Source: Abditibacteriaceae bacterium
GTDB taxonomy: Bacteria; Armatimonadota; Abditibacteriia; Abditibacteriales; Abditibacteriaceae
Reading direction: 5' to 3'
NCBI GenBank assembly: GCA_031425655.1
Contig: JANPJS010000065.1
Location: 1 to 22,155 of the forward strand
DNA length: 22,155 bases
The position numbers and the translations under genes are program-made. The notes under the pieces were generated by a model. That model saw nothing but the letters and a program-made list of their open reading frames with translations, was not told where the DNA came from and ran no database searches. Positions within the stretch are counted from its first letter, which is position 1; each line of letters starts with the position of its first letter. Positions 139 to 21,785 of this stretch are shown piece by piece.

Positions 139-151
139 TTAAGAATTGAAG

Positions 152-1363
152 ATGCGCGGTGAACTCAAAACTCAAAACTCAAAACTCAAAACTGTCGTTT
201 TTATGGCCGGCGATGTTTCGGGCGATATTCATTGCGCGATGCTGGCGCGCGAAATCGCACAAAGGCATCCCGACTGGAAAATTGTTGTTGTCGGCGGCGT
301 TAATCTTCAGCAAGTCGCGCGAAATGCCGAAAATGGGCAGATTTTAGGTGATACGACCGGCTATGGCGTGATTGGATTCGGCCCGACGCTGCCACTTTTG
401 CCGCGCGTGCTGAAATTGCGCCGAACTGTCGAGAACTTCGTGCGCCGAGAGCCTCCCGACGCTGTTGTGCTGTGCGATTGGGGCGCTTTTAATGGCCGCC
501 TGCTGCCGTTTCTCAAAGCGCAAAACGTGCCTTCGCTTTATTACTTTCCGCCGCGCTCGTGGCAACGCGAAGGCTCAGGCGGATTGGGCATTGTGCCGTT
601 CGTTAATCGTGTGGCGACGCCGTTCGAGTGGTCGGCGGCGCGTTTAATCAACGCCGGATGTCAGGCCGAATGGGTCGGCCATCCGCTTCTCGAAACGGTG
701 CGCTCGTCGCAGCCGCGCGAAGATTTGCGACGCGAGTTCGGCGCCGAAAACCGCGACACGCTGATCGCACTTTTGCCCGGTTCTCGCGCATTGGAATTGC
801 GCTACATCGCGCCGCATTTAGTCGAATCGGCGCGGCTGCTGCAAGCGCGCCATGCAAAGCGCAAGTTTCGCTTTGCCGTCGCCGTTCCGTCGGGCGCGGC
901 TTCGCGCGTGCGGCGTTATTTCGACGAATCGTTTGTCGTGGTCGAAGGCCGCGCCGGAGATTTATTTTTCGCCTGCGACGCCGCAGTTGTCAAAAGCGGA
1001 ACCGTCACGTTGGAAGCTGCTGTTGCCGGGGCGCCGATGGTTGTGGTTTACGATGTGCCCGCCGTGATGGCTTTGCAGTGGAAACTCACCGGTTCCAGCC
1101 GACGCGTGCCGTTGGTGGCGATGCCAAATATTATTTTGGGGCGCATGGCGGTGCGCGAGCTTCTTGGCCCGCATTGCCGCCCGCAAAACATCGTGGCCGA
1201 ACTGGAAAAGCTGCTCGATGATGCCGCGCTTCGCGCCCAAATGAGTGAAGATTATAAGGAAGTGCGGGGCGCATTAGGCGCCGAATTGCCATTTTCGGCG
1301 ACGGCGCGCAGCGCGACAATTTTAGAAGAAATGCTTTCGCCGGGGCGTGACGCGGCCACCTGA
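152..1363 (+). CDS. lpxB: Lipid-A-disaccharide synthase
   Basis: Motifs AGDVSGD, DWGAFN, YYFPPRSW, WVGHPL, LLPGSR, KSGTVTLE and MPNIILG. ATG at 152 is preferred over TTG 146; the start must precede the TVVFMAG beta-strand. Confidence 0.93.
   Translation: MRGELKTQNSKLKTVVFMAGDVSGDIHCAMLAREIAQRHPDWKIVVVGGVNLQQVARNAENGQILGDTTGYGVIGFGPTLPLLPRVLKLRRTVENFVRREPPDAVVLCDWGAFNGRLLPFLKAQNVPSLYYFPPRSWQREGSGGLGIVPFVNRVATPFEWSAARLINAGCQAEWVGHPLLETVRSSQPREDLRREFGAENRDTLIALLPGSRALELRYIAPHLVESARLLQARHAKRKFRFAVAVPSGAASRVRRYFDESFVVVEGRAGDLFFACDAAVVKSGTVTLEAAVAGAPMVVVYDVPAVMALQWKLTGSSRRVPLVAMPNIILGRMAVRELLGPHCRPQNIVAELEKLLDDAALRAQMSEDYKEVRGALGAELPFSATARSATILEEMLSPGRDAAT
161..193 (+). repeat. Heptamer tandem repeat (AAAACTC)x~4.5 inside the lpxB 5' end
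   Basis: gaactc aaaactc aaaactc aaaactc aaaact, translated as ELKTQNSKLKT. Confidence 0.95.
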
Positions 1364-3175
1364 ATGGAAAATATTAAGCGACTGTTGCCTTATGTGCGCG
1401 GGCAAAAAAGCGCCCTGATTCGCGGTATTCTCTGCGCCACATTATATGGCGTGGTCGGTTCGGTCTTCATTTATCTGATTAGTCAGGTTCTCAAGCCCAT
1501 GCTCGACCCGGAAATGCCGGATCGCATGGCGCAGCTCAATTACATCGTTTTTGTGGTCATCGTGCTGGCGGTTTGTCGCGGGTTTTTGGATTTTGGGCAG
1601 GTTTATATTATTCAGCGCAGCGGTCAGCGCATTTTCACCGCGCTGCGCGCCGACTTATTTCGCCATTTTCAAAATCTGCCGGTCAGCTATTTTGAAGGTC
1701 ATCGCACCGGCGAAATCATCAGCCGCTTGACCAACGATTTGACGGCATTGACGGCCCTGCTCAACGTCGGAATTATAACCGCCGTCGCGGCGCCGATTGA
1801 ATTGGTCGGCTCGCTGGGCTTGATGTTGTATTTCAACTGGCGGCTTTCGCTCTTCGTGGTGCTGATTTTGCCGCCGATGGCGATTCTGATTAATCGCGCC
1901 GGGCGGCGCATTCGTCGCGCTTCCGCCGAAGTGCAGGAGCAAGCCGCGAATCTGAATGATTATCTTCAGGAAAAGTTCGCGGCCATGCGCTTGATTCAAA
2001 CTTTCGGCAGCCGCGATTACGAAATTCAGCTTTTCAATCGCGTCAATAACGATAGTTATCGCGCCACGCTGCACCCAATTCGCATTCATGCGAGCCTGGC
2101 TCCGGTGATCGAGTTTTGCGGCATGATGGGCGTTTTGCTGGCGCTGTGGTTCGGCGCGCAGCAAGTGAAAACCACCGAAGACGCCGCCAACCTTTTCGCC
2201 TTTTTAATGGCATTGCACCGTGTAGCGATGCGCGCTAAAGGCATCGCGAGTTTGAATTTGCTGATTCGTCAGGCCGATGCCGCCGCCGCCCGCATTTTTG
2301 AAGTGATAGACACGCAGCCGCACATTCGCAACGCGCCGGATGCCGTCGCTTTGCCGGATGCGCGCGGGCATTTGAAATTCGAGGACGTGCATTTTTCTTA
2401 CAACGACGAGCGCGAGGTTTTGCAGGGCATCAGCTTTGAGGTCAAGCCCGGCGAAATGGTCGCTTTGGCGGGCCTGAGCGGTTCGGGAAAAAGCACCATC
2501 GCTGCGCTTGTGCCGCGTCTTTACGACCCTAAACAAGGCGGGGTTTTGTTGGACGGCCACGATTTGCGCGATATTACGCTGGAATCGCTGCGCTCTCATA
2601 TCGGCGCGGTGCCACAGGAAACTACGCTTTTTCACGGCAGCATCCGCGACAACATCGCTTACGGCAAGCCCGAAGCGAGCTTCGAGGAGATCGTCGAAGC
2701 GGCCCGGCGAGCCAACGCGCACGATTTTATCGTCGCGCAGCCCGGCGGTTACGAAGCGGAAATCGGCGAACGCGGCGGAAAATTGTCGGGCGGACAGCGC
2801 CAGCGCATCGCCATCGCGCGGGCGCTACTTCGCAATCCGCGCATCTTGATTTTGGATGAAGCGACGGCATCTCTTGACTCGAAAACCGAAGCCGCCGTGC
2901 AAGAGGCTCTCGATGAATTGATGAAAGGCCGCACCACGTTAGTCATCGCGCACCGCTTTTCGACGATCCAAAATGCCGACTCTATTTACGTTCTCGATAG
3001 CGGGCGCATCGTGGAAAACGGCACGCATCCGCAGCTTTTGGCGCGCGGCGGCGTTTACGCCAAGTTGTATCAAGCGCAGGCGTTTGTGAAGGAAGGGGCT
3101 GGGGACAGGGGGCTGGGGACTGGGCAATCGCCGCAAAACGGAAACTCAACAGAGGACAGCGATGGCGCCCGATAA
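1364..3175 (+). CDS. msbA: Lipid A export ABC transporter (fused TMD-NBD), MsbA-like
   Basis: N-terminal TM domain, Walker A GLSGSGKS, signature LSGGQRQ, Walker B ILILDE and IAHR H-loop. Sits between lpxB and waaA with TGA-ATG coupling. Confidence 0.88.
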   Translation: MENIKRLLPYVRGQKSALIRGILCATLYGVVGSVFIYLISQVLKPMLDPEMPDRMAQLNYIVFVVIVLAVCRGFLDFGQVYIIQRSGQRIFTALRADLFRHFQNLPVSYFEGHRTGEIISRLTNDLTALTALLNVGIITAVAAPIELVGSLGLMLYFNWRLSLFVVLILPPMAILINRAGRRIRRASAEVQEQAANLNDYLQEKFAAMRLIQTFGSRDYEIQLFNRVNNDSYRATLHPIRIHASLAPVIEFCGMMGVLLALWFGAQQVKTTEDAANLFAFLMALHRVAMRAKGIASLNLLIRQADAAAARIFEVIDTQPHIRNAPDAVALPDARGHLKFEDVHFSYNDEREVLQGISFEVKPGEMVALAGLSGSGKSTIAALVPRLYDPKQGGVLLDGHDLRDITLESLRSHIGAVPQETTLFHGSIRDNIAYGKPEASFEEIVEAARRANAHDFIVAQPGGYEAEIGERGGKLSGGQRQRIAIARALLRNPRILILDEATASLDSKTEAAVQEALDELMKGRTTLVIAHRFSTIQNADSIYVLDSGRIVENGTHPQLLARGGVYAKLYQAQAFVKEGAGDRGLGTGQSPQNGNSTEDSDGAR

Positions 3176-3244
3176 TCCGCCGACAAATCGGGCACCAAGT
3201 GCTGATCGGCAATCGCCAGCCGCCAGCCCCCAGTCCCTAACCCC
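3095..3244. repeat. Tandem-heptamer palindrome: (GGGRCWG)x4 ... (CAGYCCC-like)x4 spanning the msbA/waaA overlap
   Basis: Left arm ggggctg gggacag ggggctg gggactg (3095-3122). Right arm cagccgc cagcccc cagtccc taacccc (3217-3244). Confidence 0.85.
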
Positions 3245-4553
3245 TTATCTTTTCAACGCGCTGCTGCTGCCTTTTTATCCCGTCGTGTGGCTGTATACGC
3301 TGTGGCGGCGTTTCGTGAAAAAACGGAGTGCCGCGTCGCTGCGTGGACAGTGGGGCAGTGTGCCGCACGAAGCGCGCGAAGCGTTGCGCGGCGGAGGGCC
3401 GATCATCTGGCTGCACGCGGTTTCGGTGGGTGAAAACGTGGCGGCGCGTCCTGTTTTGCGCGCTTTGCGTGCGGCGATGCCCGCATCGCGCATCGGCGTT
3501 TCCGTAACGACCGACACGGGATTTGAAACGGCGCAGGGCGCCCGAAAAGCCGGCGAATCGGACGCCGTTTTTTATTTTCCGATTGATCTTCCCGTTCACA
3601 TCAGCCGCGCGCTGCGTGCCGTTCGACCCAACGCGTTTCTCACGATGGAAACCGAATTGTGGCCGAACTTTTTGCACTTGGCGCGGCGTGGCGGCGCGAA
3701 AACTTTTCTGGTCAACGGGCGCGTTTCGGATCGAATGATGCAAAGCGTGCCGCGCTGCAAACCGCTGTGGCGTTGGACTTTTTCCAATCTCGACGGCGCT
3801 CTGATGCGCTCGGAAAGCGATGCCACGCGACTGCGCCAATTAGCCGAAATTCTTGGGGCCGGGCCGCGCGAAATTCTCGTGACGGGCGACGTAAAACTCG
3901 ATTCGGCGCCGCCCGACGAAGACGGACAGATGCGCCGCGCCGCGCGCGAAAAATGGCGTGGCCTTTTCGGCATCTCGCCCGACGCGCCACTGTGGGTGGC
4001 CGGCTCGACGCATCCCGGCGAAGAAGAGATGATTTTGCGCGCTTTCGCCGCGTTGCGCGCAGAGTTTCCGGCTTTGCGTTTAGCCATCGCGCCGCGCCAC
4101 GTTGAGCGCGCCGCAGACGTGGAAAAGCTCATCGCGCGCGATTTTCCGGTTTTGCGCCGCACGCAAACAGCGCGTGATGCAGTTGTTTCCGACGCCGTGT
4201 GTTTGCTGGATAGCGTTGGCGAATTGGCCGAGCTATATGCCGCCGCCGACGTGACTTTCGTTGGCGGCAGCCTGATTGAGCGCGGCGGACACAATATGCT
4301 CGAACCGGTTTTGCGCGGCGTGCCCGTCGTTTTCGGCCCCTTTGTGATGAACTTCCGCGATGCGGCAACTCTGGTCGAAAGTAGCGGCGCCGGCACGCGC
4401 GTGCAAAACGAAACCGGGTTGCGCGAAGCCATTGGAATGTGGCTGCGCCAGCCCGAAAAAAGCGAAAAGGTGCCGCAAATGGCCGCTGAAGCCCTGTCGC
4501 CGCATCAAGGCGCCGCAACCCGCGTGGCTGAATTCATCGCCGCGCGGCTTTAG
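3162..4553 (+). CDS. waaA: 3-deoxy-D-manno-octulosonic acid (Kdo) transferase
   Basis: Motifs IWLHAVSVGE, ETELWPN, VNGRVS, GDVKLD, AGSTHPGEE, APRH and GGHNMLEP. An RBS-like GAGGA precedes the ATG. Confidence 0.95.
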   Translation: MAPDNPPTNRAPSADRQSPAASPQSLTPYLFNALLLPFYPVVWLYTLWRRFVKKRSAASLRGQWGSVPHEAREALRGGGPIIWLHAVSVGENVAARPVLRALRAAMPASRIGVSVTTDTGFETAQGARKAGESDAVFYFPIDLPVHISRALRAVRPNAFLTMETELWPNFLHLARRGGAKTFLVNGRVSDRMMQSVPRCKPLWRWTFSNLDGALMRSESDATRLRQLAEILGAGPREILVTGDVKLDSAPPDEDGQMRRAAREKWRGLFGISPDAPLWVAGSTHPGEEEMILRAFAALRAEFPALRLAIAPRHVERAADVEKLIARDFPVLRRTQTARDAVVSDAVCLLDSVGELAELYAAADVTFVGGSLIERGGHNMLEPVLRGVPVVFGPFVMNFRDAATLVESSGAGTRVQNETGLREAIGMWLRQPEKSEKVPQMAAEALSPHQGAATRVAEFIAARL

Positions 4554-4554
4554 A

Positions 4555-4654
4555 TTTTAAACACAAAGACACGAAGGATTCACAAAGCGCACAAAGGAAT
4601 TTAACTTTGTCTTTTTGTGTTCTTTGTGCCTCCTTTGTGTTCTTTGTGTTTAAA
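4555..4654. repeat. Tandem-repeat palindrome with ~9-10 nt unit (CACAAAG / CTTTGTG) filling the waaA-lpxK spacer
   Basis: tttaaacacaaagacacgaaggattcacaaagcgcacaaagg ... ctttttgtgttctttgtgcctcctttgtgttctttgtgtttaaa; outer ends TTTAAACACAAAGA/TCTTTGTGTTTAAA are complementary. Confidence 0.9.
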
Positions 4655-5679
4655 TGCTTGCCCTCACACCCGCCGAAGCAATTTATCGCGCGCTTTATTT
4701 GCGCCGCAAAGCGAAGTTTTCGCGCGGCGGAACGGACATCGGCGTGCCGGTCGTTTCGGTCGGCAATATCACGGTGGGCGGCACGGGAAAAACGCCCGCC
4801 GTGCAATGGATAGCGCGCGAAATCGCCAAAACGGGCCGGCGCGTGGCGATTGTAGCGCGCGGTTACGGCGGCACTCTGAGCGCACGCGGCGCGGTTGTTT
4901 CCGACGGCGCGCAAGTTTTACTCAGCGTGCGCGAAGCTGGCGATGAACCGTTCTTGCACGCGCGGGCGCTGCCCGGCGTGCCTGTTGTCATCGGCCTGGA
5001 TCGCGTTGCTGCCGCGCGGCGCGGCGTAGAAGAATGCGGCGCCGAAATTGTGATTCTCGATGATGCTTTTCAATTTTGGTCGCTGAAGCGCAATTTCGAT
5101 TTGGTGCTGCTTGATGCGCGCCGGCCTTTCGACAACGAGCATTTGTTGCCTGCGGGAAGATTGCGCGAACCACCGCAAGCCTTGAATCGCGCCGGCGCGA
5201 TTTTACTAACGCGCTGCGATGCTGCGACGAGGGAGCAAATTGCCGCGTCGCGCCAACAAATCGCACGTTTTTGCGGCGCCCCGATTTTTGAATCGAATCA
5301 CGCGCCCTCCGGCTTGCGCGACGAAGAAACGGGCAAAGTCTGGCCTTTGAATAAACTGAAAGAGTTGCCGGTTGCGGCGTTGTCGGCTTTGGCGCACAAC
5401 GCCAATTTTTTCGACACGTTGGCGCGTTGCGGCGCACAGATCGAATCGCAGTTGGCGCGGCGCGATCATCATTTTTGGCGCGAATCCGAAGTGCGGAATT
5501 TCGCAAACCAGGCGCGGAAAAAGGGCGCGCAGGCCATTTTGACGACGGAAAAAGACGCCGTAAAAATGCGCTCCGATTGGACAACGCCGCTGCCATTGCA
5601 CAGCTTGGTTATCGAGTTGGATTTAGGCGATGACGCAGGGCATCTGCAAGAATTACTCTTAAAAGCCGTGAAAATATGA
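4654..5679 (+). CDS. lpxK: Tetraacyldisaccharide 4'-kinase
   Basis: Motifs VGNITVGGTGKTP, RGYGG, GDEP, LDDAFQ, PAGRLREP and TTEKDAVK. Confidence 0.96.
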   Translation: MLALTPAEAIYRALYLRRKAKFSRGGTDIGVPVVSVGNITVGGTGKTPAVQWIAREIAKTGRRVAIVARGYGGTLSARGAVVSDGAQVLLSVREAGDEPFLHARALPGVPVVIGLDRVAAARRGVEECGAEIVILDDAFQFWSLKRNFDLVLLDARRPFDNEHLLPAGRLREPPQALNRAGAILLTRCDAATREQIAASRQQIARFCGAPIFESNHAPSGLRDEETGKVWPLNKLKELPVAALSALAHNANFFDTLARCGAQIESQLARRDHHFWRESEVRNFANQARKKGAQAILTTEKDAVKMRSDWTTPLPLHSLVIELDLGDDAGHLQELLLKAVKI

Positions 5680-6578
5680 AATTCGACCGCAATTCCTGGG
5701 AAACGCGCGCCACACACTTAGTCGGCGGCGCGATGCAGCGCGCTTCGTGGGGCGCGTGTCGTCGCGCTGGTTGGTGGATGGGGCTGGCACTTTCCAAAGC
5801 CTTGAAAAGCCGACGCGCGGTGGCTGTCGGCAATGTGCGGCGCGCGTTTCCGCACCTGAGCGAAGCCGCCGCGCGCGAAGTAGTGCGACGCAGCGTGCAA
5901 AACTCGGCGATGATGCTTTTCGAGTTCATGCGCCTTTCGACGGCCACGCCGCAGGAAGTGCGCGATTACGTGGCCATTGAAGGATGGGAGAACGGCTTCG
6001 CGGCTTTGGAAAAAGGACGCGGAATGTTGATCTTTACGGCACATTTGGGCAACTGGGAGCTAATGGGCGCCCGCGCTGCGCAAGAGTTTCCGGTCGCTGT
6101 TGTCGCGCGGCCTTCGTCCAATCAGGGTATTCAAGAGCAAATTGTGCGTGTGCGCCGCGCTGCGGGCATCGAAGTGATTTCCAAGCACGACACGGGCCGC
6201 GCCGCGTTGGAAGTGTTGAAGAAAAATCACGCTTTGGGAATTTTGCCCGATCAGCACGCCGGGCCGGAGGGCTTGCTTTTACCGTTTTTCGGGCATCCCA
6301 CGCGCATGGTTTCGTCGCTATCGCGCATCGCCATGATGTCGGGCGCGCCGATTGTCCCGGCCTTCGGTGTGCGCCGCCGTCCCTGGCTCAGCGACGGGCG
6401 CATTATCGCCTATGCTTCACCCGGCTACGTTGTCGAAAACGACCGCAAACGCCGCGAAGAATTGGTGCTGCAAGGCACGCAGCGCATGGTTATGGAGTTG
6501 GAAAAGATCATCACGCAACACCCCGATCAGTGGCTCTGGCTGCATCGCCGCTGGCGCAAAGAAGACGGAAGCCAATAA
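5676..6578 (+). CDS. lpxL: Lipid A biosynthesis late acyltransferase (LpxL/HtrB family)
   Basis: Motifs HLGNWE, LPDQ, PFFG and PDQWLWLHRRW; ATGA overlap with lpxK. Family is secure, acyl specificity is not. Confidence 0.85.
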   Translation: MKFDRNSWETRATHLVGGAMQRASWGACRRAGWWMGLALSKALKSRRAVAVGNVRRAFPHLSEAAAREVVRRSVQNSAMMLFEFMRLSTATPQEVRDYVAIEGWENGFAALEKGRGMLIFTAHLGNWELMGARAAQEFPVAVVARPSSNQGIQEQIVRVRRAAGIEVISKHDTGRAALEVLKKNHALGILPDQHAGPEGLLLPFFGHPTRMVSSLSRIAMMSGAPIVPAFGVRRRPWLSDGRIIAYASPGYVVENDRKRREELVLQGTQRMVMELEKIITQHPDQWLWLHRRWRKEDGSQ

Positions 6579-6830: not shown

Positions 6831-7022
6831 GTTGTGTAACAGCGCGCGATTTGGTCGAAGCGAAGGCGGGCGTTCTCTGGTCGCTGGAAGTTAGTCGCGT
6901 TTCGCATTATGTTTCGCGTCGGGTCTCCGGTAGCGCGAAATCTCTGGCTCTGGTAAAAGGACTTTGGTCGCGCGGCAGGCAGCGGTTTCGACGTTGCAAC
7001 CACTGCACAATAATCGGTAGGC
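6831..7022 (+). other. Putative ORF-less integron cassette with collapsed attC
   Basis: Begins with core-site-like GTTGTGT (6831) and ends with the near-complementary inverse core GCACAAT (7005-7011). This is followed after only 4 nt by GGTAGGC (7016-7022), which nearly complements the GCCTAAC at the end of the next gene. Confidence 0.45.
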
Positions 7023-7036
7023 ATCACAGGAACCCA

Positions 7037-7684
7037 ATGCGCACCAACTATGTCCTTGTTGACTTCGAGAACGTCCAGCCTGCCTCATTCGAGGCGCTTG
7101 GGCACGACCACTTCAAGCTCTTGGTGTTCGTTGGCGCAAATCAGGCAAAAGTGTCCTTCGAAATAGCTGCCTCGCTTCAGCAACTGGGAACACGAGCCGG
7201 TTACGTCAAGATCACGGGAAACGGTTCAAATGCGCTTGACTTCCACATTGCCTATTACATTGGAAAGTTGGCGGCAGAAGAACCCACCGCCTACTTTCAT
7301 ATTGTCTCCACAGACACAGGCTTTGATCCTCTAATTCAGCACCTCAAGGCTGAAGGCATCCGCGCATGTCGCGTGAAAGATATCTCAGAGATTCCAGCGG
7401 CAAAGACACCAGCGGCAAAGACACCTGCGGCAAAGACACCTGTGGCAAAGACACCTGCGGCAAAGACACCGTCCGAGCGCAATCAAGTGGCAGCAAACTG
7501 GCTTCAACAGACGAAGGCAACGAAGCCGCGCACGGTCAAGACCCTGAGCAGCACTATCGCCTCGTTGTTCCATAAAAAATTGTCGGAAAAAGAGGTTGCT
7601 GGTATCGTTAATTGGCTGGCAGAACAGGGTTATGTGGCGATAGCGGGAACAAAAGTGTCGTATACAACGCGCCCTGATGCCTAA
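7037..7684 (+). CDS. PIN/NYN-fold (PIN7-like) putative ribonuclease carried as a gene cassette
   Basis: Motifs VLVDFENVQP, GSNALDFHIAYYIG and IVSTDTGFDPL contain the PIN-type acidic residues. ATG 7037 has a CAGGA RBS; the 62-codon upstream extension in the ORF track is unlikely. The stop TAA lies inside the attC inverse core GCCTAAC. Codon usage differs from the flanks. Confidence 0.85.
   Translation: MRTNYVLVDFENVQPASFEALGHDHFKLLVFVGANQAKVSFEIAASLQQLGTRAGYVKITGNGSNALDFHIAYYIGKLAAEEPTAYFHIVSTDTGFDPLIQHLKAEGIRACRVKDISEIPAAKTPAAKTPAAKTPVAKTPAAKTPSERNQVAANWLQQTKATKPRTVKTLSSTIASLFHKKLSEKEVAGIVNWLAEQGYVAIAGTKVSYTTRPDA
7394..7468 (+). repeat. 15-bp coding tandem repeat x5 (PAAKT)
   Basis: ccagcggcaaagaca x2, cctgcggcaaagaca, cctgtggcaaagaca, cctgcggcaaagaca. 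Confidence 0.97.
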
Positions 7685-18973: not shown

Positions 18974-19071
18974 AAGTGCGAAGTGCGGAATGCGGAATGC
19001 GAAGTATTGAGTGCGCGGGCGCCCTCTGGGCATTCCGCATTCCGCATTCCGCATTCCGCACTCAATACTTC
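18974..19071. repeat. Tandem-heptamer palindrome (GAATGCG / CGCATTC) between convergent genes; likely bidirectional 3'-end structure
   Basis: aagtgcg aagtgcg gaatgcg gaatgcg ... cattc cgcattc cgcattc cgcattc cgcactc. Confidence 0.93.
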
Positions 19072-19559
19072 CAATCGTTGTGTTCAGCGTAGCTTAAAAC
19101 GCCGAGCAGACATTCGGGTGAAGGGCGACCGCGCGGGCCGCTGAGAAGCCATTGGCAGGAAATCAAACCTTCGGTATCTACGAGAACGACCGCCGGAGCC
19201 GTGTAAATTTTGTAATCGTCGCGGAGTGGCTGATTAACTTCGTAGAGACCGTAAGCCAGCCCGACCTCGCCGTCTTCGTCAATGAGCAGCGGCGGGCGGA
19301 TTTTGAACTGTTCGGCGAACTGCGCGTGTTCGGCGCGGCCACCGTTGACCAGAAAAACCAATTCGCAATTCATCATTTTGAAGATGTGCGAAAACGTGTC
19401 CCAGAGGGCGAACTCGCCCCGCGTCGTCGGTCAGAATTCGCCGCGACAGAAATGCAGAATCACCATTTTGCCGCCTTGCTCGCTGAGCTTCCACTGGCCG
19501 CCGCGCACGTCCGTCAGCGCGATTTCGGGCGCGCGGTCGCCGTTTTTCAAGGTAAACAT
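19062..19559 (-). CDS. Peroxiredoxin-like (AhpC/TSA, thioredoxin-fold) selenoprotein, 165 aa, Sec at codon 43
   Basis: GGAGG RBS (19569-19565) precedes ATG 19559. Reads MFTLKNGDRAPEIALTDVRGGQWKLSEQGGKMVILHFCRGEF-TGA-PTTRGEFALWDTFSHIFK and continues in frame into the listed 19376..19062 ORF (LLIDEDGEVGLAYGL, PAVVLVDTEGLI, GRPSPE). Confidence 0.88.
19405..19420 (-). promoter_or_regulatory. Putative bacterial SECIS hairpin
   Basis: mRNA GGGGCG-AGUU-CGCCCU. The loop starts 16 nt after the UGA (19433-19431) and has G at its second position. Confidence 0.65.
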
Positions 19560-19641
19560 TCAAGCCTCCGTAATTATTAAAGCCAATCTATCGCACGAGG
19601 TGGCTAAATCCCACCACGCGGGTAGACTGAAACTTCCTGTC

Positions 19642-19676: not shown

Positions 19677-20099
19677 GTGAAGCAATTGCCGTCGTTCGTG
19701 CGCGGCGGGGCAAAGGACGCGCCGCCGCAACTGCGTGAGTTCTGGGAATTATGGCAAAACGAAGAATTTTTCGCTTGTCACGAAGTTCTCGAAGAATTGT
19801 GGCGGCAAAGCGCAGAGCCGAAACGCCGGTTTTATAACGGCCTGATTCACGCCGCCGTGGCGATTTATCAGCATCGGCGCGGCAACCCGGTCGGCGCGGC
19901 GCGGCAATGGGTGCGGGCGCAAGTCAAATTGGCGCCGTTTGCGCCGGAATACGATGACGTAAACGTGGAATTGCTGCTGCGCGCCGTCGAAATGGAAATC
20001 GCGCCGTCGCTGCGGCGTTTAGATGAAAGTGAAGAGCGGCGATTAGAGATATTGCGCCGCGATTTGAGCCGGGAATTGAACGGTTCCGAAGGAGTTTGA
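19677..20099 (+). CDS. DUF309 domain-containing protein
   Basis: Motifs FFACHEVLEELW and GLIHAAVAIYQHRRGN. Confidence 0.9.
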   Translation: MKQLPSFVRGGAKDAPPQLREFWELWQNEEFFACHEVLEELWRQSAEPKRRFYNGLIHAAVAIYQHRRGNPVGAARQWVRAQVKLAPFAPEYDDVNVELLLRAVEMEIAPSLRRLDESEERRLEILRRDLSRELNGSEGV

Positions 20100-20105
20100 G
20101 ATTAC

Positions 20106-21785
20106 ATGGCGGATCAGTTAGTGGAAACAGCACCCGACGCGCGCTCGCAAAAGCGTTACGCGGCTTTGAAATTATCGGAAGACGGGCGTTTGGCGACTTT
20201 GGACGCCATGGGCGATGACCGGCGCGATTTAAACGCCGCCGAGCGCATCAAGTTGGAAAAACCCGGCCCCAAAGTGTGGGACGATGTCGTTTCGCGTTAC
20301 GCGGCGGGCGGCTTCGCTTCGATTGACGCCGACGATTTCGACCGCTTCAAATGGATCGGCGTTTATCAGCAGCGGCCCAAAGATGGCTATTTCATGCTGC
20401 GAATTAAACTACCGGGCGGGCAGGTCAGCAACGCGCAACTGCGCGTTTTGGCCGACATAACGCGCGATTATGCGCGCGGCGTGTCCGACATCACCACGCG
20501 CCAGACTTTGCAGATGCACTGGCTGACCATTGATATGTTCCCCGACATCATGGAGCGTCTGGGCACCGTCGGTTTGGGCGTGAAAGAAGGCTTTTTCGGC
20601 GCGTGCGGCGACATTTGCCGCAATATCGTGTCGTCGCCGATTGCCGGTCTGGATGCGGAAGCGGTCATTGACACGACGCCGCTGGTTCTCGAAGCCAACC
20701 GCTATTTTTCGGCGCATCCCGATTACGCCGATTTGCCGCGCAAATTCAAAGTTGGCATCTTCGGGCATCGCAGCGCCGGTCAGTGCGAGATCAACTGCGT
20801 GGCGTTTTACGGCGTGCGCCGCGCCGACGGCAGCGTCGGCTATGGCCTGATGGCGGGCGGTGGCCTTTCGACTGAGCCGCACATCGGCCAGGATTTGCAC
20901 GTCTTCGTGCAACCCGAACAAGTGATGGAAGTTTTGGAAGCGATCACGCGCACTTACCGCGATCACGGCTACCGCAAGAATCGCAAGCACGCGCGCCTGA
21001 AATTTCTCGTTGCCGATTGGGGCCGCGAAAAGTTCCGCGCCGAAATCGAAAAGCTCATCGGCTATGCGCTGCCGGACGCCGAAGCGCAGCCGCGCGTCAA
21101 GGGCTATGAAGACAAACTCGGCGTGTTTCCGCAAATGCAGGCCGGACTCAGCTTTGTCGGCGTTCCGGTCGTCGCCGGGCGCCTGACCGACGCGCAGATG
21201 TTCGCCATTGCTGACTTGGCGCAGGAGTTCGGCAGCGGCGACGTGCGTTTCACCGTGATGCAGAACTTTTATCTCATCAACGTGCCGAACGCGAAGATTT
21301 CAGAGCTTTTGGTGCGTTTGGATGACTTGGGATTTCCGGTCGAAGCCAGTCCGGTGCGGCGCGGCATTGTGGCTTGCACCGGCATCGAATTTTGCAATTT
21401 GGCCGTGACGGAAACCAAAGCCCGCGCCGCCAATCTGGTGCAGTTGCTCGACCGCGACGTGAAGTGGACGGACTCGGAATTTTTCCGCATTAACGTCAAC
21501 GGCTGCCCGAATTCGTGCGGTCAACACTGGATTGCCGACGTTGGCTTGCAGGGCTGCCAGAAGAAAGTTAACGGCGAAACTGTCGAGCTTTACGATGTGT
21601 TTTTGGGCGGCACATTAGGCACCGACGCGCGCTTTAATCGCCGCATCAAGCGCGTGCCCGCCGAGGAAGTTGCGCCCGCCATTCAGAAGCTGATGGGCAG
21701 TTACGAATTGAGCCGTCTCAGCGGCGAATCGTTCGCGGACTGGGTTTCGCGCCACAGCGATGAAGAACTCGAAGTGCTTTTTTAA
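20106..21785 (+). CDS. Ferredoxin-dependent sulfite (nitrite/sulfite family) reductase, siroheme-[4Fe-4S]
   Basis: Motifs GVYQQR, FMLRIKLPGG, ITTRQTLQMH, ACGDICRN, LPRKFK, CTGIEFC and GCPNSCG. AAGGAG RBS upstream. Confidence 0.93.
   Translation: MADQLVETAPDARSQKRYAALKLSEDGRLATLDAMGDDRRDLNAAERIKLEKPGPKVWDDVVSRYAAGGFASIDADDFDRFKWIGVYQQRPKDGYFMLRIKLPGGQVSNAQLRVLADITRDYARGVSDITTRQTLQMHWLTIDMFPDIMERLGTVGLGVKEGFFGACGDICRNIVSSPIAGLDAEAVIDTTPLVLEANRYFSAHPDYADLPRKFKVGIFGHRSAGQCEINCVAFYGVRRADGSVGYGLMAGGGLSTEPHIGQDLHVFVQPEQVMEVLEAITRTYRDHGYRKNRKHARLKFLVADWGREKFRAEIEKLIGYALPDAEAQPRVKGYEDKLGVFPQMQAGLSFVGVPVVAGRLTDAQMFAIADLAQEFGSGDVRFTVMQNFYLINVPNAKISELLVRLDDLGFPVEASPVRRGIVACTGIEFCNLAVTETKARAANLVQLLDRDVKWTDSEFFRINVNGCPNSCGQHWIADVGLQGCQKKVNGETVELYDVFLGGTLGTDARFNRRIKRVPAEEVAPAIQKLMGSYELSRLSGESFADWVSRHSDEELEVLF

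Follow-up and report, generated by a model that had tools for sequence, protein, structure and literature searches.

A probable UxxT selenoprotein on an AhpC/TSA scaffold, encoded by an apparently interrupted gene of an Abditibacteriaceae bacterium

An interrupted gene and its surroundings

The stretch analysed here (the window) is contig C65, 22,155 nucleotides in length, of a 5.98-Mb genome that is 97% complete and whose closest titled relatives are Abditibacteriaceae (76–84% identity, with one further record at 86%). On its minus strand, the ORF at 19559–19062 contains one in-frame TGA, at codon 43 (Table 1), and ORF calling without read-through returned only a 104-aa C-terminal ORF. An earlier inspection of the letters alone (the sequence-only reading) had described a ribosome-binding site and ATG, a single in-frame TGA at 19433–19431, a 165-aa product and a final UGA, and every one of these coordinates was reproduced. 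The AhpC/TSA N-terminus that it saw continuing into a thioredoxin-fold C-half was also borne out: the Pfam AhpC-TSA match crosses the TGA (residues 7–133 of the read-through product, E 1.2e-17; Redoxin was also matched), and the AlphaFold model of this product has a pLDDT of 93.9, with a helix starting at residue 44. That the true stop is UGA as well was correct but unremarkable, TGA being the stop of 776 of 1882 long ORFs in the host genome, and some orthologues with TGA at codon 43 (TGA forms) terminate with TAA or TAG.

Table 1. Features of the interrupted gene and its flanks (window coordinates)
Feature	Position	Strand	Basis
Predicted 165-aa AhpC/TSA-fold (Prx-like) selenoprotein gene, one UGA read through	19062..19559	-	Pfam, homologue alignment, AlphaFold model
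Shine-Dalgarno GGAGG, ATG (19559) 5 nt further on	19565..19569	-	sequence
Predicted Sec codon UGA, residue 43, start of first helix, first-Cys position of CxxC	19431..19433	-	Cys in homologues, TGA in orthologues, model, ResA alignment
Putative SECIS upper stem-loop, encodes R47-L52	19405..19421	-	conservation, frozen codons, bSECIS constraints
A121-P122, thioredoxin-fold cis-Pro position (Arg in peroxiredoxins)	19194..19199	-	homologue alignment, PrxQ alignment; cis geometry presumed
Family signature W137..G-P-R-G-x-P-S-P-E, optional Cys150 at start of last helix	19110..19151	-	alignment and model
True stop UGA	19062..19064	-	homologues terminate at matching Tyr
Two inverted arrays, 7-bp repeat, between selenoprotein gene and convergent lptF/G-like gene	18974..19060	.	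sequence

No promoter was found on the strand of the gene, nor any upstream motif conserved across five aligned loci. The inverted repeat arrays beyond its stop codon likely act as a terminator-like hairpin separate from the recoding signal; a consensus terminator scan found none, and other contigs of the public runs compared are rich in repeats of this kind. Divergent DUF309 and nitrite/sulfite reductase genes lie at 19677–21785 (+), a layout found in only 3–4 of 30 loci. Candidates for a conserved operon partner were rejected on such counts: DUF309, NIR-SIR and LptFG (only 3–4 of 30 loci), DUF1802, DUF1844 and a hexapeptide-repeat gene (11 of 30), a zinc-ribbon gene and MoCF_biosynth (4 loci each) and Gfo/Idh/MocA (6 loci). 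Elsewhere in the window, the run of ORFs at 146–6578 (+) presumably comprises lipid A/Kdo-like genes (LpxB-, MsbA-, WaaA-, LpxK- and acyltransferase-like), and an ORF at 6851–7684 (+) has five tandem PAAKT-like repeats and a composition that looks different.

Decoding of UGA43

The residues occupying column 43 were examined among 120 listed homologues. All 52 full-length homologues aligned have Cys there, and neither Trp nor any other non-Cys residue was found; of the remaining 68, two reach column 43 (both with Cys) and 66 start after it, the last count being judged from proteins, some of which may be contig-edge fragments. Residue 43 also aligned to the first Cys of ResA, in agreement with the earlier placement of the TGA at the first redox Cys. 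Eight of nine short matches end exactly one residue before codon 43 (one is listed in the window's own cluster), so that annotation pipelines evidently split the gene, as the sequence-only reading had expected of standard pipelines; the N- and C-terminal halves are stored in databases as separate proteins.

A family profile at 1e-25 found matches in 40 of 401 genomes of the phylum, including 26 of 27 from the host's family and one (G315) that represents the sister family. The loci scored (N = 39, duplicates counted once) were 38 genome orthologues and one metagenome locus; the G017 orthologue, a gene in two pieces with column 43 unaligned, was left out. Fifteen of these loci have TGA and 24 have Cys at column 43, which is the Cys/TGA pairing to be expected of a selenocysteine position. 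The TGA recurs in 15 genomes over a protein identity range of 54–99%.

A hairpin had been noticed at 19420–19405, just 3′ of the UGA as in bacterial SECIS elements. It forms in the predicted RNA fold, with a 6-bp stem (19420–19415/19410–19405) and an AGUU loop (19414–19411), at a spacing of 16 nt from the UGA. The bSECIS model, as given in the Fig 2 legend of PMC13188914, allows a loop of 3–9 nt with a G among its first two bases, a stem of 4–16 bp, a spacing of 16–37 nt and an MFE ≤ −7.5; the 4-nt AGUU loop, 6 bp, 16 nt and −9.9 kcal/mol of the isolated hairpin fall within these limits. An Rfam scan gave no SECIS family match, and the stability of the hairpin relative to shuffled sequences was not significant in any of four windows (z = +0.36, −0.23, −0.13 and −1.46). 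The significance of the hairpin therefore lies in its conservation and not in its energy. The 17 nt at 19421–19405 are identical in 15/15 TGA forms and in 0/24 Cys forms, none of which has the complete 6-bp stem, and the genome contains a single copy of the 14-nt hairpin core. Among the TGA forms there are 49 degenerate columns with an invariant amino acid; the codon itself is invariant at 5/5 of those inside the hairpin (columns 47–51) and at 0/43 outside it; the third base of column 52 lies beyond the stem. Since the stem never varies among TGA forms, no compensatory changes were seen and covariation evidence is absent.

The host genome encodes selA, selB, tRNA-Sec (selC) and selD, all over their cut-offs (549, 356, 76 and 364 bits, respectively), and ARAGORN also calls the tRNA-Sec; the machinery on which the sequence-only reading made its claim depend is thus present. 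Across the scored set, selA and/or tRNA-Sec was found in 15/15 genomes with TGA forms, as against 2/23 with Cys forms (G084 and G072). These counts include related genomes, and no p-value is attached to them because kin are not independent. In three of the TGA genomes these matches are weak, missing or split: G255 (72% complete) has a weak tRNA-Sec match only, G096 has no tRNA match, and selA of G023 (C8) is in two pieces. In G255, the orthologue (L091) has a second TGA ten codons past the Sec codon, and neither selA nor selB was matched in this 72% complete genome, for which reasons its Sec system may be decaying.

Other Sec sites were observed in the host. Its selD (G000:C40:91-1277) carries an in-frame Sec codon of its own and is followed by the tRNA-Sec; the loop of the first hairpin predicted after this UGA is CCC and lacks the usual G. 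A second host selenoprotein (G000:C297, TGA at 5210, minus strand; L099, L102–L105) has a Bcp/PrxQ-type domain with PxxxTxxU and a long N-terminal region. The TGA of this TxxU Sec-peroxiredoxin is common to four of five relatives tested, and the hairpin downstream of it differs in sequence. Four molybdopterin-family matches in the host have no stop within the matched part. A de novo scan for selenoproteins by coding potential was noisy: it kept two of the three Sec sites from the family searches and missed selD.

The Sec genes, the Cys/TGA pairing and the hairpin confined to TGA forms all agree with the central claim of the sequence-only reading, a hidden selenoprotein. We conclude from these comparisons that UGA43 is, with very high probability, recoded as selenocysteine, and that the apparently broken gene almost certainly encodes a Sec-containing redox protein. 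Bound to the AGUU-loop hairpin 16 nt past the codon, SelB with its Sec-tRNA would decode UGA43 as selenocysteine, giving a 165-aa thioredoxin-fold protein on an AhpC/TSA scaffold without an N-terminal extension. That the TGA might instead be a nonsense mutation or sequencing error, or the locus two small separate genes, could draw on the separate database entries for the two halves and on the presence of private TGAs in the host assembly (the TGA of a sulfatase-like gene is absent from its 10 listed matches in three relatives), but this is highly improbable and is effectively refuted, on comparative grounds, by conservation of the TGA in 15 genomes at 54–99% identity, each with Sec genes and an identical hairpin, and by the frozen hairpin codons; moreover, both halves are conserved as a single domain. 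Contigs from four public runs showed no difference at 19431–19433 among the rows listed; one run is possibly the source of the assembly, and its contig, with 0 differences, is not independent.

Reading of UGA as Trp was considered and rejected, column 43 being Cys and TGA a major stop in the host. About two dozen coding-like frames of the host contain comparable in-frame TGAs, including non-Sec-like ones in C144 (1659, −) and C149 (12438, +). Of these two, the sulfatase-like one is the private TGA mentioned above, and the thioredoxin-like one sits just before an intact CxxC, where the residue is usually Trp.

Fold, family and proposed chemistry of the UxxT protein

The best Foldseek match of the model was Bcp4 (TM 0.82), and the top nine structural matches (VIA) are all peroxiredoxins. 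Structure comparison gave Z 21.2 for AhpE (rmsd 2.0 over 151) and Z 17.4 for ResA (rmsd 2.2 over 137); prostamide/prostaglandin F synthase and deiodinase 3, at Z 16.2 and 13.6, respectively, have the same fold as the model. In the alignment with PrxQ, U43 pairs with the Thr and T46 with the peroxidatic Cys of TxxC, and R39 and P122 occupy the places of the Pro and the Arg, so that R39, U43 and T46 stand in place of PxxxTxxC/U and P122 in place of the catalytic Arg. In PMC2757866, as far as its available text goes, the Arg is assigned to peroxiredoxins, thioredoxins and CMPs are given the cis-Pro, and Cxx[S/T] is the motif of monothiol glutaredoxins and glutathione peroxidases, Cxx-T being the usual GPx arrangement. 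Based on the likeness of the model, the PrxQ and ResA alignments and these assignments, the protein as modelled has the shape of a peroxiredoxin and an active-site layout of the thioredoxin type, with one redox residue. The earlier label "peroxiredoxin-like" therefore holds for scaffold and fold, but peroxiredoxin identity was rejected, given Sec at the first-Cys position and Pro in place of the Prx Arg. The predicted fold implies a redox role for U43.

The conserved core of the family is R-G-x-[FY]-[U/C]-[P/H]-T-x-R-x-E, and not the C-x4-U-x-x-T first proposed, as Cys38 is present in 13/15 TGA forms but in only 4/24 Cys forms. R39 is invariant, R47/E49 and T45 are near-invariant, and T46, fixed in TGA forms, can be P, G or A in Cys homologues: the +3 residue is Thr in 15/15 TGA forms and T, P, G or A, never C, in the 52 database homologues. 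P122 is Pro in 51/52 database homologues and in 11/14 TGA forms, the other three having Ser. A C-terminal GPRG motif and the aromatic residues Y106, Y119, W137 and Y165 are highly conserved. The Cys residues of HFCRG, NCEL, SCQW and PECL had been put forward as resolving residues; besides Cys38, these are C65 (8/15 TGA forms), C135 (13/14) and C150 (11/14), and G096 and G070 retain just one of them. Since no extra Cys is universal among TGA forms, an obligatory resolving Cys drops out.

The nearest known selenoproteins are the Prx-like thiol:disulfide oxidoreductases of the same Pfam family (PF00578, UxxC/UxxU; WP_010940744.1, Table 1 of PMC13188914). The F-x-R-G-x-aromatic-U-P frame is common to both (FYRGAWUPYC in WP_010940744.1, according to the supplement of PMC12013277), and these proteins likewise have Sec at the first-Cys position and, compared by eye, Pro at the cis-Pro position. 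They differ in having a second Cys or Sec at +3, where the present family has Thr; this family also has its own C-terminal signature (GPRG-x-PSPE) and lacks an N-terminal extension. Judged from sequence, the protein is a UxxT variant of these known UxxC "Prx-like" selenoproteins. It belongs to a tight cluster of its own (best representative E 2.5e-81, the next full-length ones about 1e-25). The AhpC/TSA selenoprotein of cd02970/PF13911 (UxxS) has a related fold and is likewise listed with a single redox residue; its representative in the PMC12013277 supplement, compared by eye, has the active-site frame FVRHFGU, unlike the UxxT family, 5/53 members of which matched PF13911 weakly (best E 0.0011). 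Bcp/PrxQ and AhpE (PxxxTxxC/U plus Arg) are the closest solved folds and differ in that the redox residue of the UxxT family is at their Thr position and Thr46 at their peroxidatic position. ResA/TlpA oxidoreductases, the SelL-related redox protein (NF040769) and WAxxUGC proteins (NF041054) gave the best NCBIfam matches, with scores far below the cut-offs (43 vs 170, 33 vs 120 and 26 vs 300 bits, respectively); in comparison with them, the UxxT protein has no second Cys and no membrane anchor. No model of NCBIfam 20.0 reached its cut-off (best E among 53 members 2.6e-15, ResA). The host also has a Cys-only paralogue (G000:C175:6624-7115, −; L100) of 29% identity, with CPTA/CPTS and a common GP[RK]G motif; it belongs to a sister family present in 18 of 401 phylum genomes, whose 21 listed matches include no Sec form.

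Among the 119 families of PMC13188914, Table 1 lists AhpC/TSA-type selenoproteins with TxxU, UxxC/UxxU, UxxS, UGC, redoxin UxxC and Prx-SUH CxxU, and UxxT on this scaffold is absent from that table. It is likewise absent from the available portions of PMC9312934, PMC1088965 and PMC2398784, and such a selenoprotein is not described in those of PMC1976440; the motifs UPTT and UHTT are absent from the GOS and deep-Sep supplements. BSepDB covers Armatimonadota genomes (PMC13326102, as far as available) and may carry members of the family as Prx-like entries; literature searches found no study of the selenoproteome of Armatimonadota. With the combination also missing from NCBIfam 20.0, an undescribed subfamily, as the sequence-only reading suspected, is possible. 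Its view of UxxT as unusual stands for the AhpC/TSA scaffold but not for the motif as such, which Table 1 of PMC13188914 lists for GPx-like, OsmC-like and distant Grx-like selenoproteins. The family would thus add to the bacterial selenoproteome a UxxT/AhpC-TSA subfamily, defined by motif, that databases hold as split halves. Prx-like selenoproteins as a class are among the best known, which limits the surprise.

By analogy, we consider it moderately probable that the protein functions as a single-selenol thiol–disulfide oxidoreductase. Se43 at the helix N-terminus would be the nucleophile, like the first Cys of thioredoxin or ResA, and Thr in place of the second Cys would leave a single selenol. 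Se43 would attack an oxidised protein thiol or a (mixed) disulfide, and an outside thiol such as thioredoxin would resolve the resulting selenenyl-sulfide, with help from an optional internal Cys (150 or 38) in many members. Lineages that lack Sec machinery would rely on a Cys43 version of this enzyme. Housekeeping thiol repair in oxidative stress would be the likely role, with which occurrence in 26/27 genomes of the host's family and the lack of a family-wide conserved neighbour are consistent. The canonical TxxU Sec-Prx that the host encodes separately was counted in favour of the oxidoreductase reading; searches of the host genome for gshB and bshC found neither, and this result was weighed against that reading, as was the Ser at position 122 of three TGA forms.

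The same recoding could serve a peroxidase, in which Se43 would reduce H2O2 or organic hydroperoxides in GPx style on the peroxiredoxin scaffold, with Cys150 as an optional resolver. We regard this as a possible but rather doubtful alternative, kept in play by the peroxiredoxins at the top of the structural matches and by Cxx-T being usual in GPx. Glutathione peroxidases share UxxT, with Sec first and Thr at +3 (Table 1 of PMC13188914 gives it as the GPx motif); an oxyanion site could be formed by R39, R47/E49 and R143; 11/14 TGA forms have Cys150; and the host has a match to heme-copper oxidase subunit I (660 bits) just below the cut-off of 670.75. Against a peroxidase, none of the three Prx residues (Pro, peroxidatic Cys and Arg) is in its place, a Sec-Prx is already encoded by the host, and 0/53 members matched Pfam GSHPx (PF00255) at E ≤ 0.01. 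Glutathione peroxidases have a Gln/Trp/Asn tetrad, which was not seen, by eye, in the alignment of the UxxT family. Less probable still is a real selenoprotein with other chemistry, such as redox sensing, transport of sulfur/selenium or of a metal, or small-molecule reduction as in the PRXL2 or deiodinase relatives of this fold. The fold common with prostamide/prostaglandin F synthase and deiodinase 3 and the conserved GPRG and aromatic residues would fit it, but neither of these two matches exceeds the Prx or ResA rows and the conserved neighbours include no metal or small-molecule pathway gene.

Evolution of Sec and Cys forms

For the tree, the Sec column and the residues encoded by the SECIS were masked. 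A strongly supported split divides the TGA forms, a similar tree was obtained with outgroups, and monophyly of the TGA forms was rejected (AU p = 5e-7). Strongly supported branches require at least three U/C changes. The two Cys forms from genomes with Sec genes, G084 and G072, nest among TGA forms and retain the 3′ arm of the hairpin, that of G084 being one synonymous change from the TGA-form sequence. As the TGA forms are not one clade, these results point to repeated Sec-to-Cys reversion. The simplest reading of the sequences would be that Sec and SECIS arose once and that reversion to Cys then took place at least twice, because independent gains must yield an identical 17 nt; the root of the gene tree is poorly resolved owing to a long outgroup branch, which bears on the status of the large Cys clade. 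According to the available portion of a 2026 review (PMC13188914), Sec-to-Cys changes are rare in bacteria, and aerobes rarely keep selenoproteins. A fuller picture, in which oxygen-respiring Armatimonadota would have a selenoperoxidase type with GPx-style U-x-x-T on a Prx scaffold without the Prx Arg, the Sec and exact SECIS being ancestral and reversion to Cys repeated, is offered very tentatively, as an unlikely combination.

The SECIS is fixed letter for letter over 54–99% protein identity and decays once Cys replaces Sec, even in two Sec-competent genomes. These matched natural pairs would make the advantage of Sec over Cys, and Sec-to-Cys reversion, directly testable. For two TGA-type loci (L055 and L058), the name Actinomycetota comes from the depositors' record titles, and the distribution claimed here is that within Armatimonadota.
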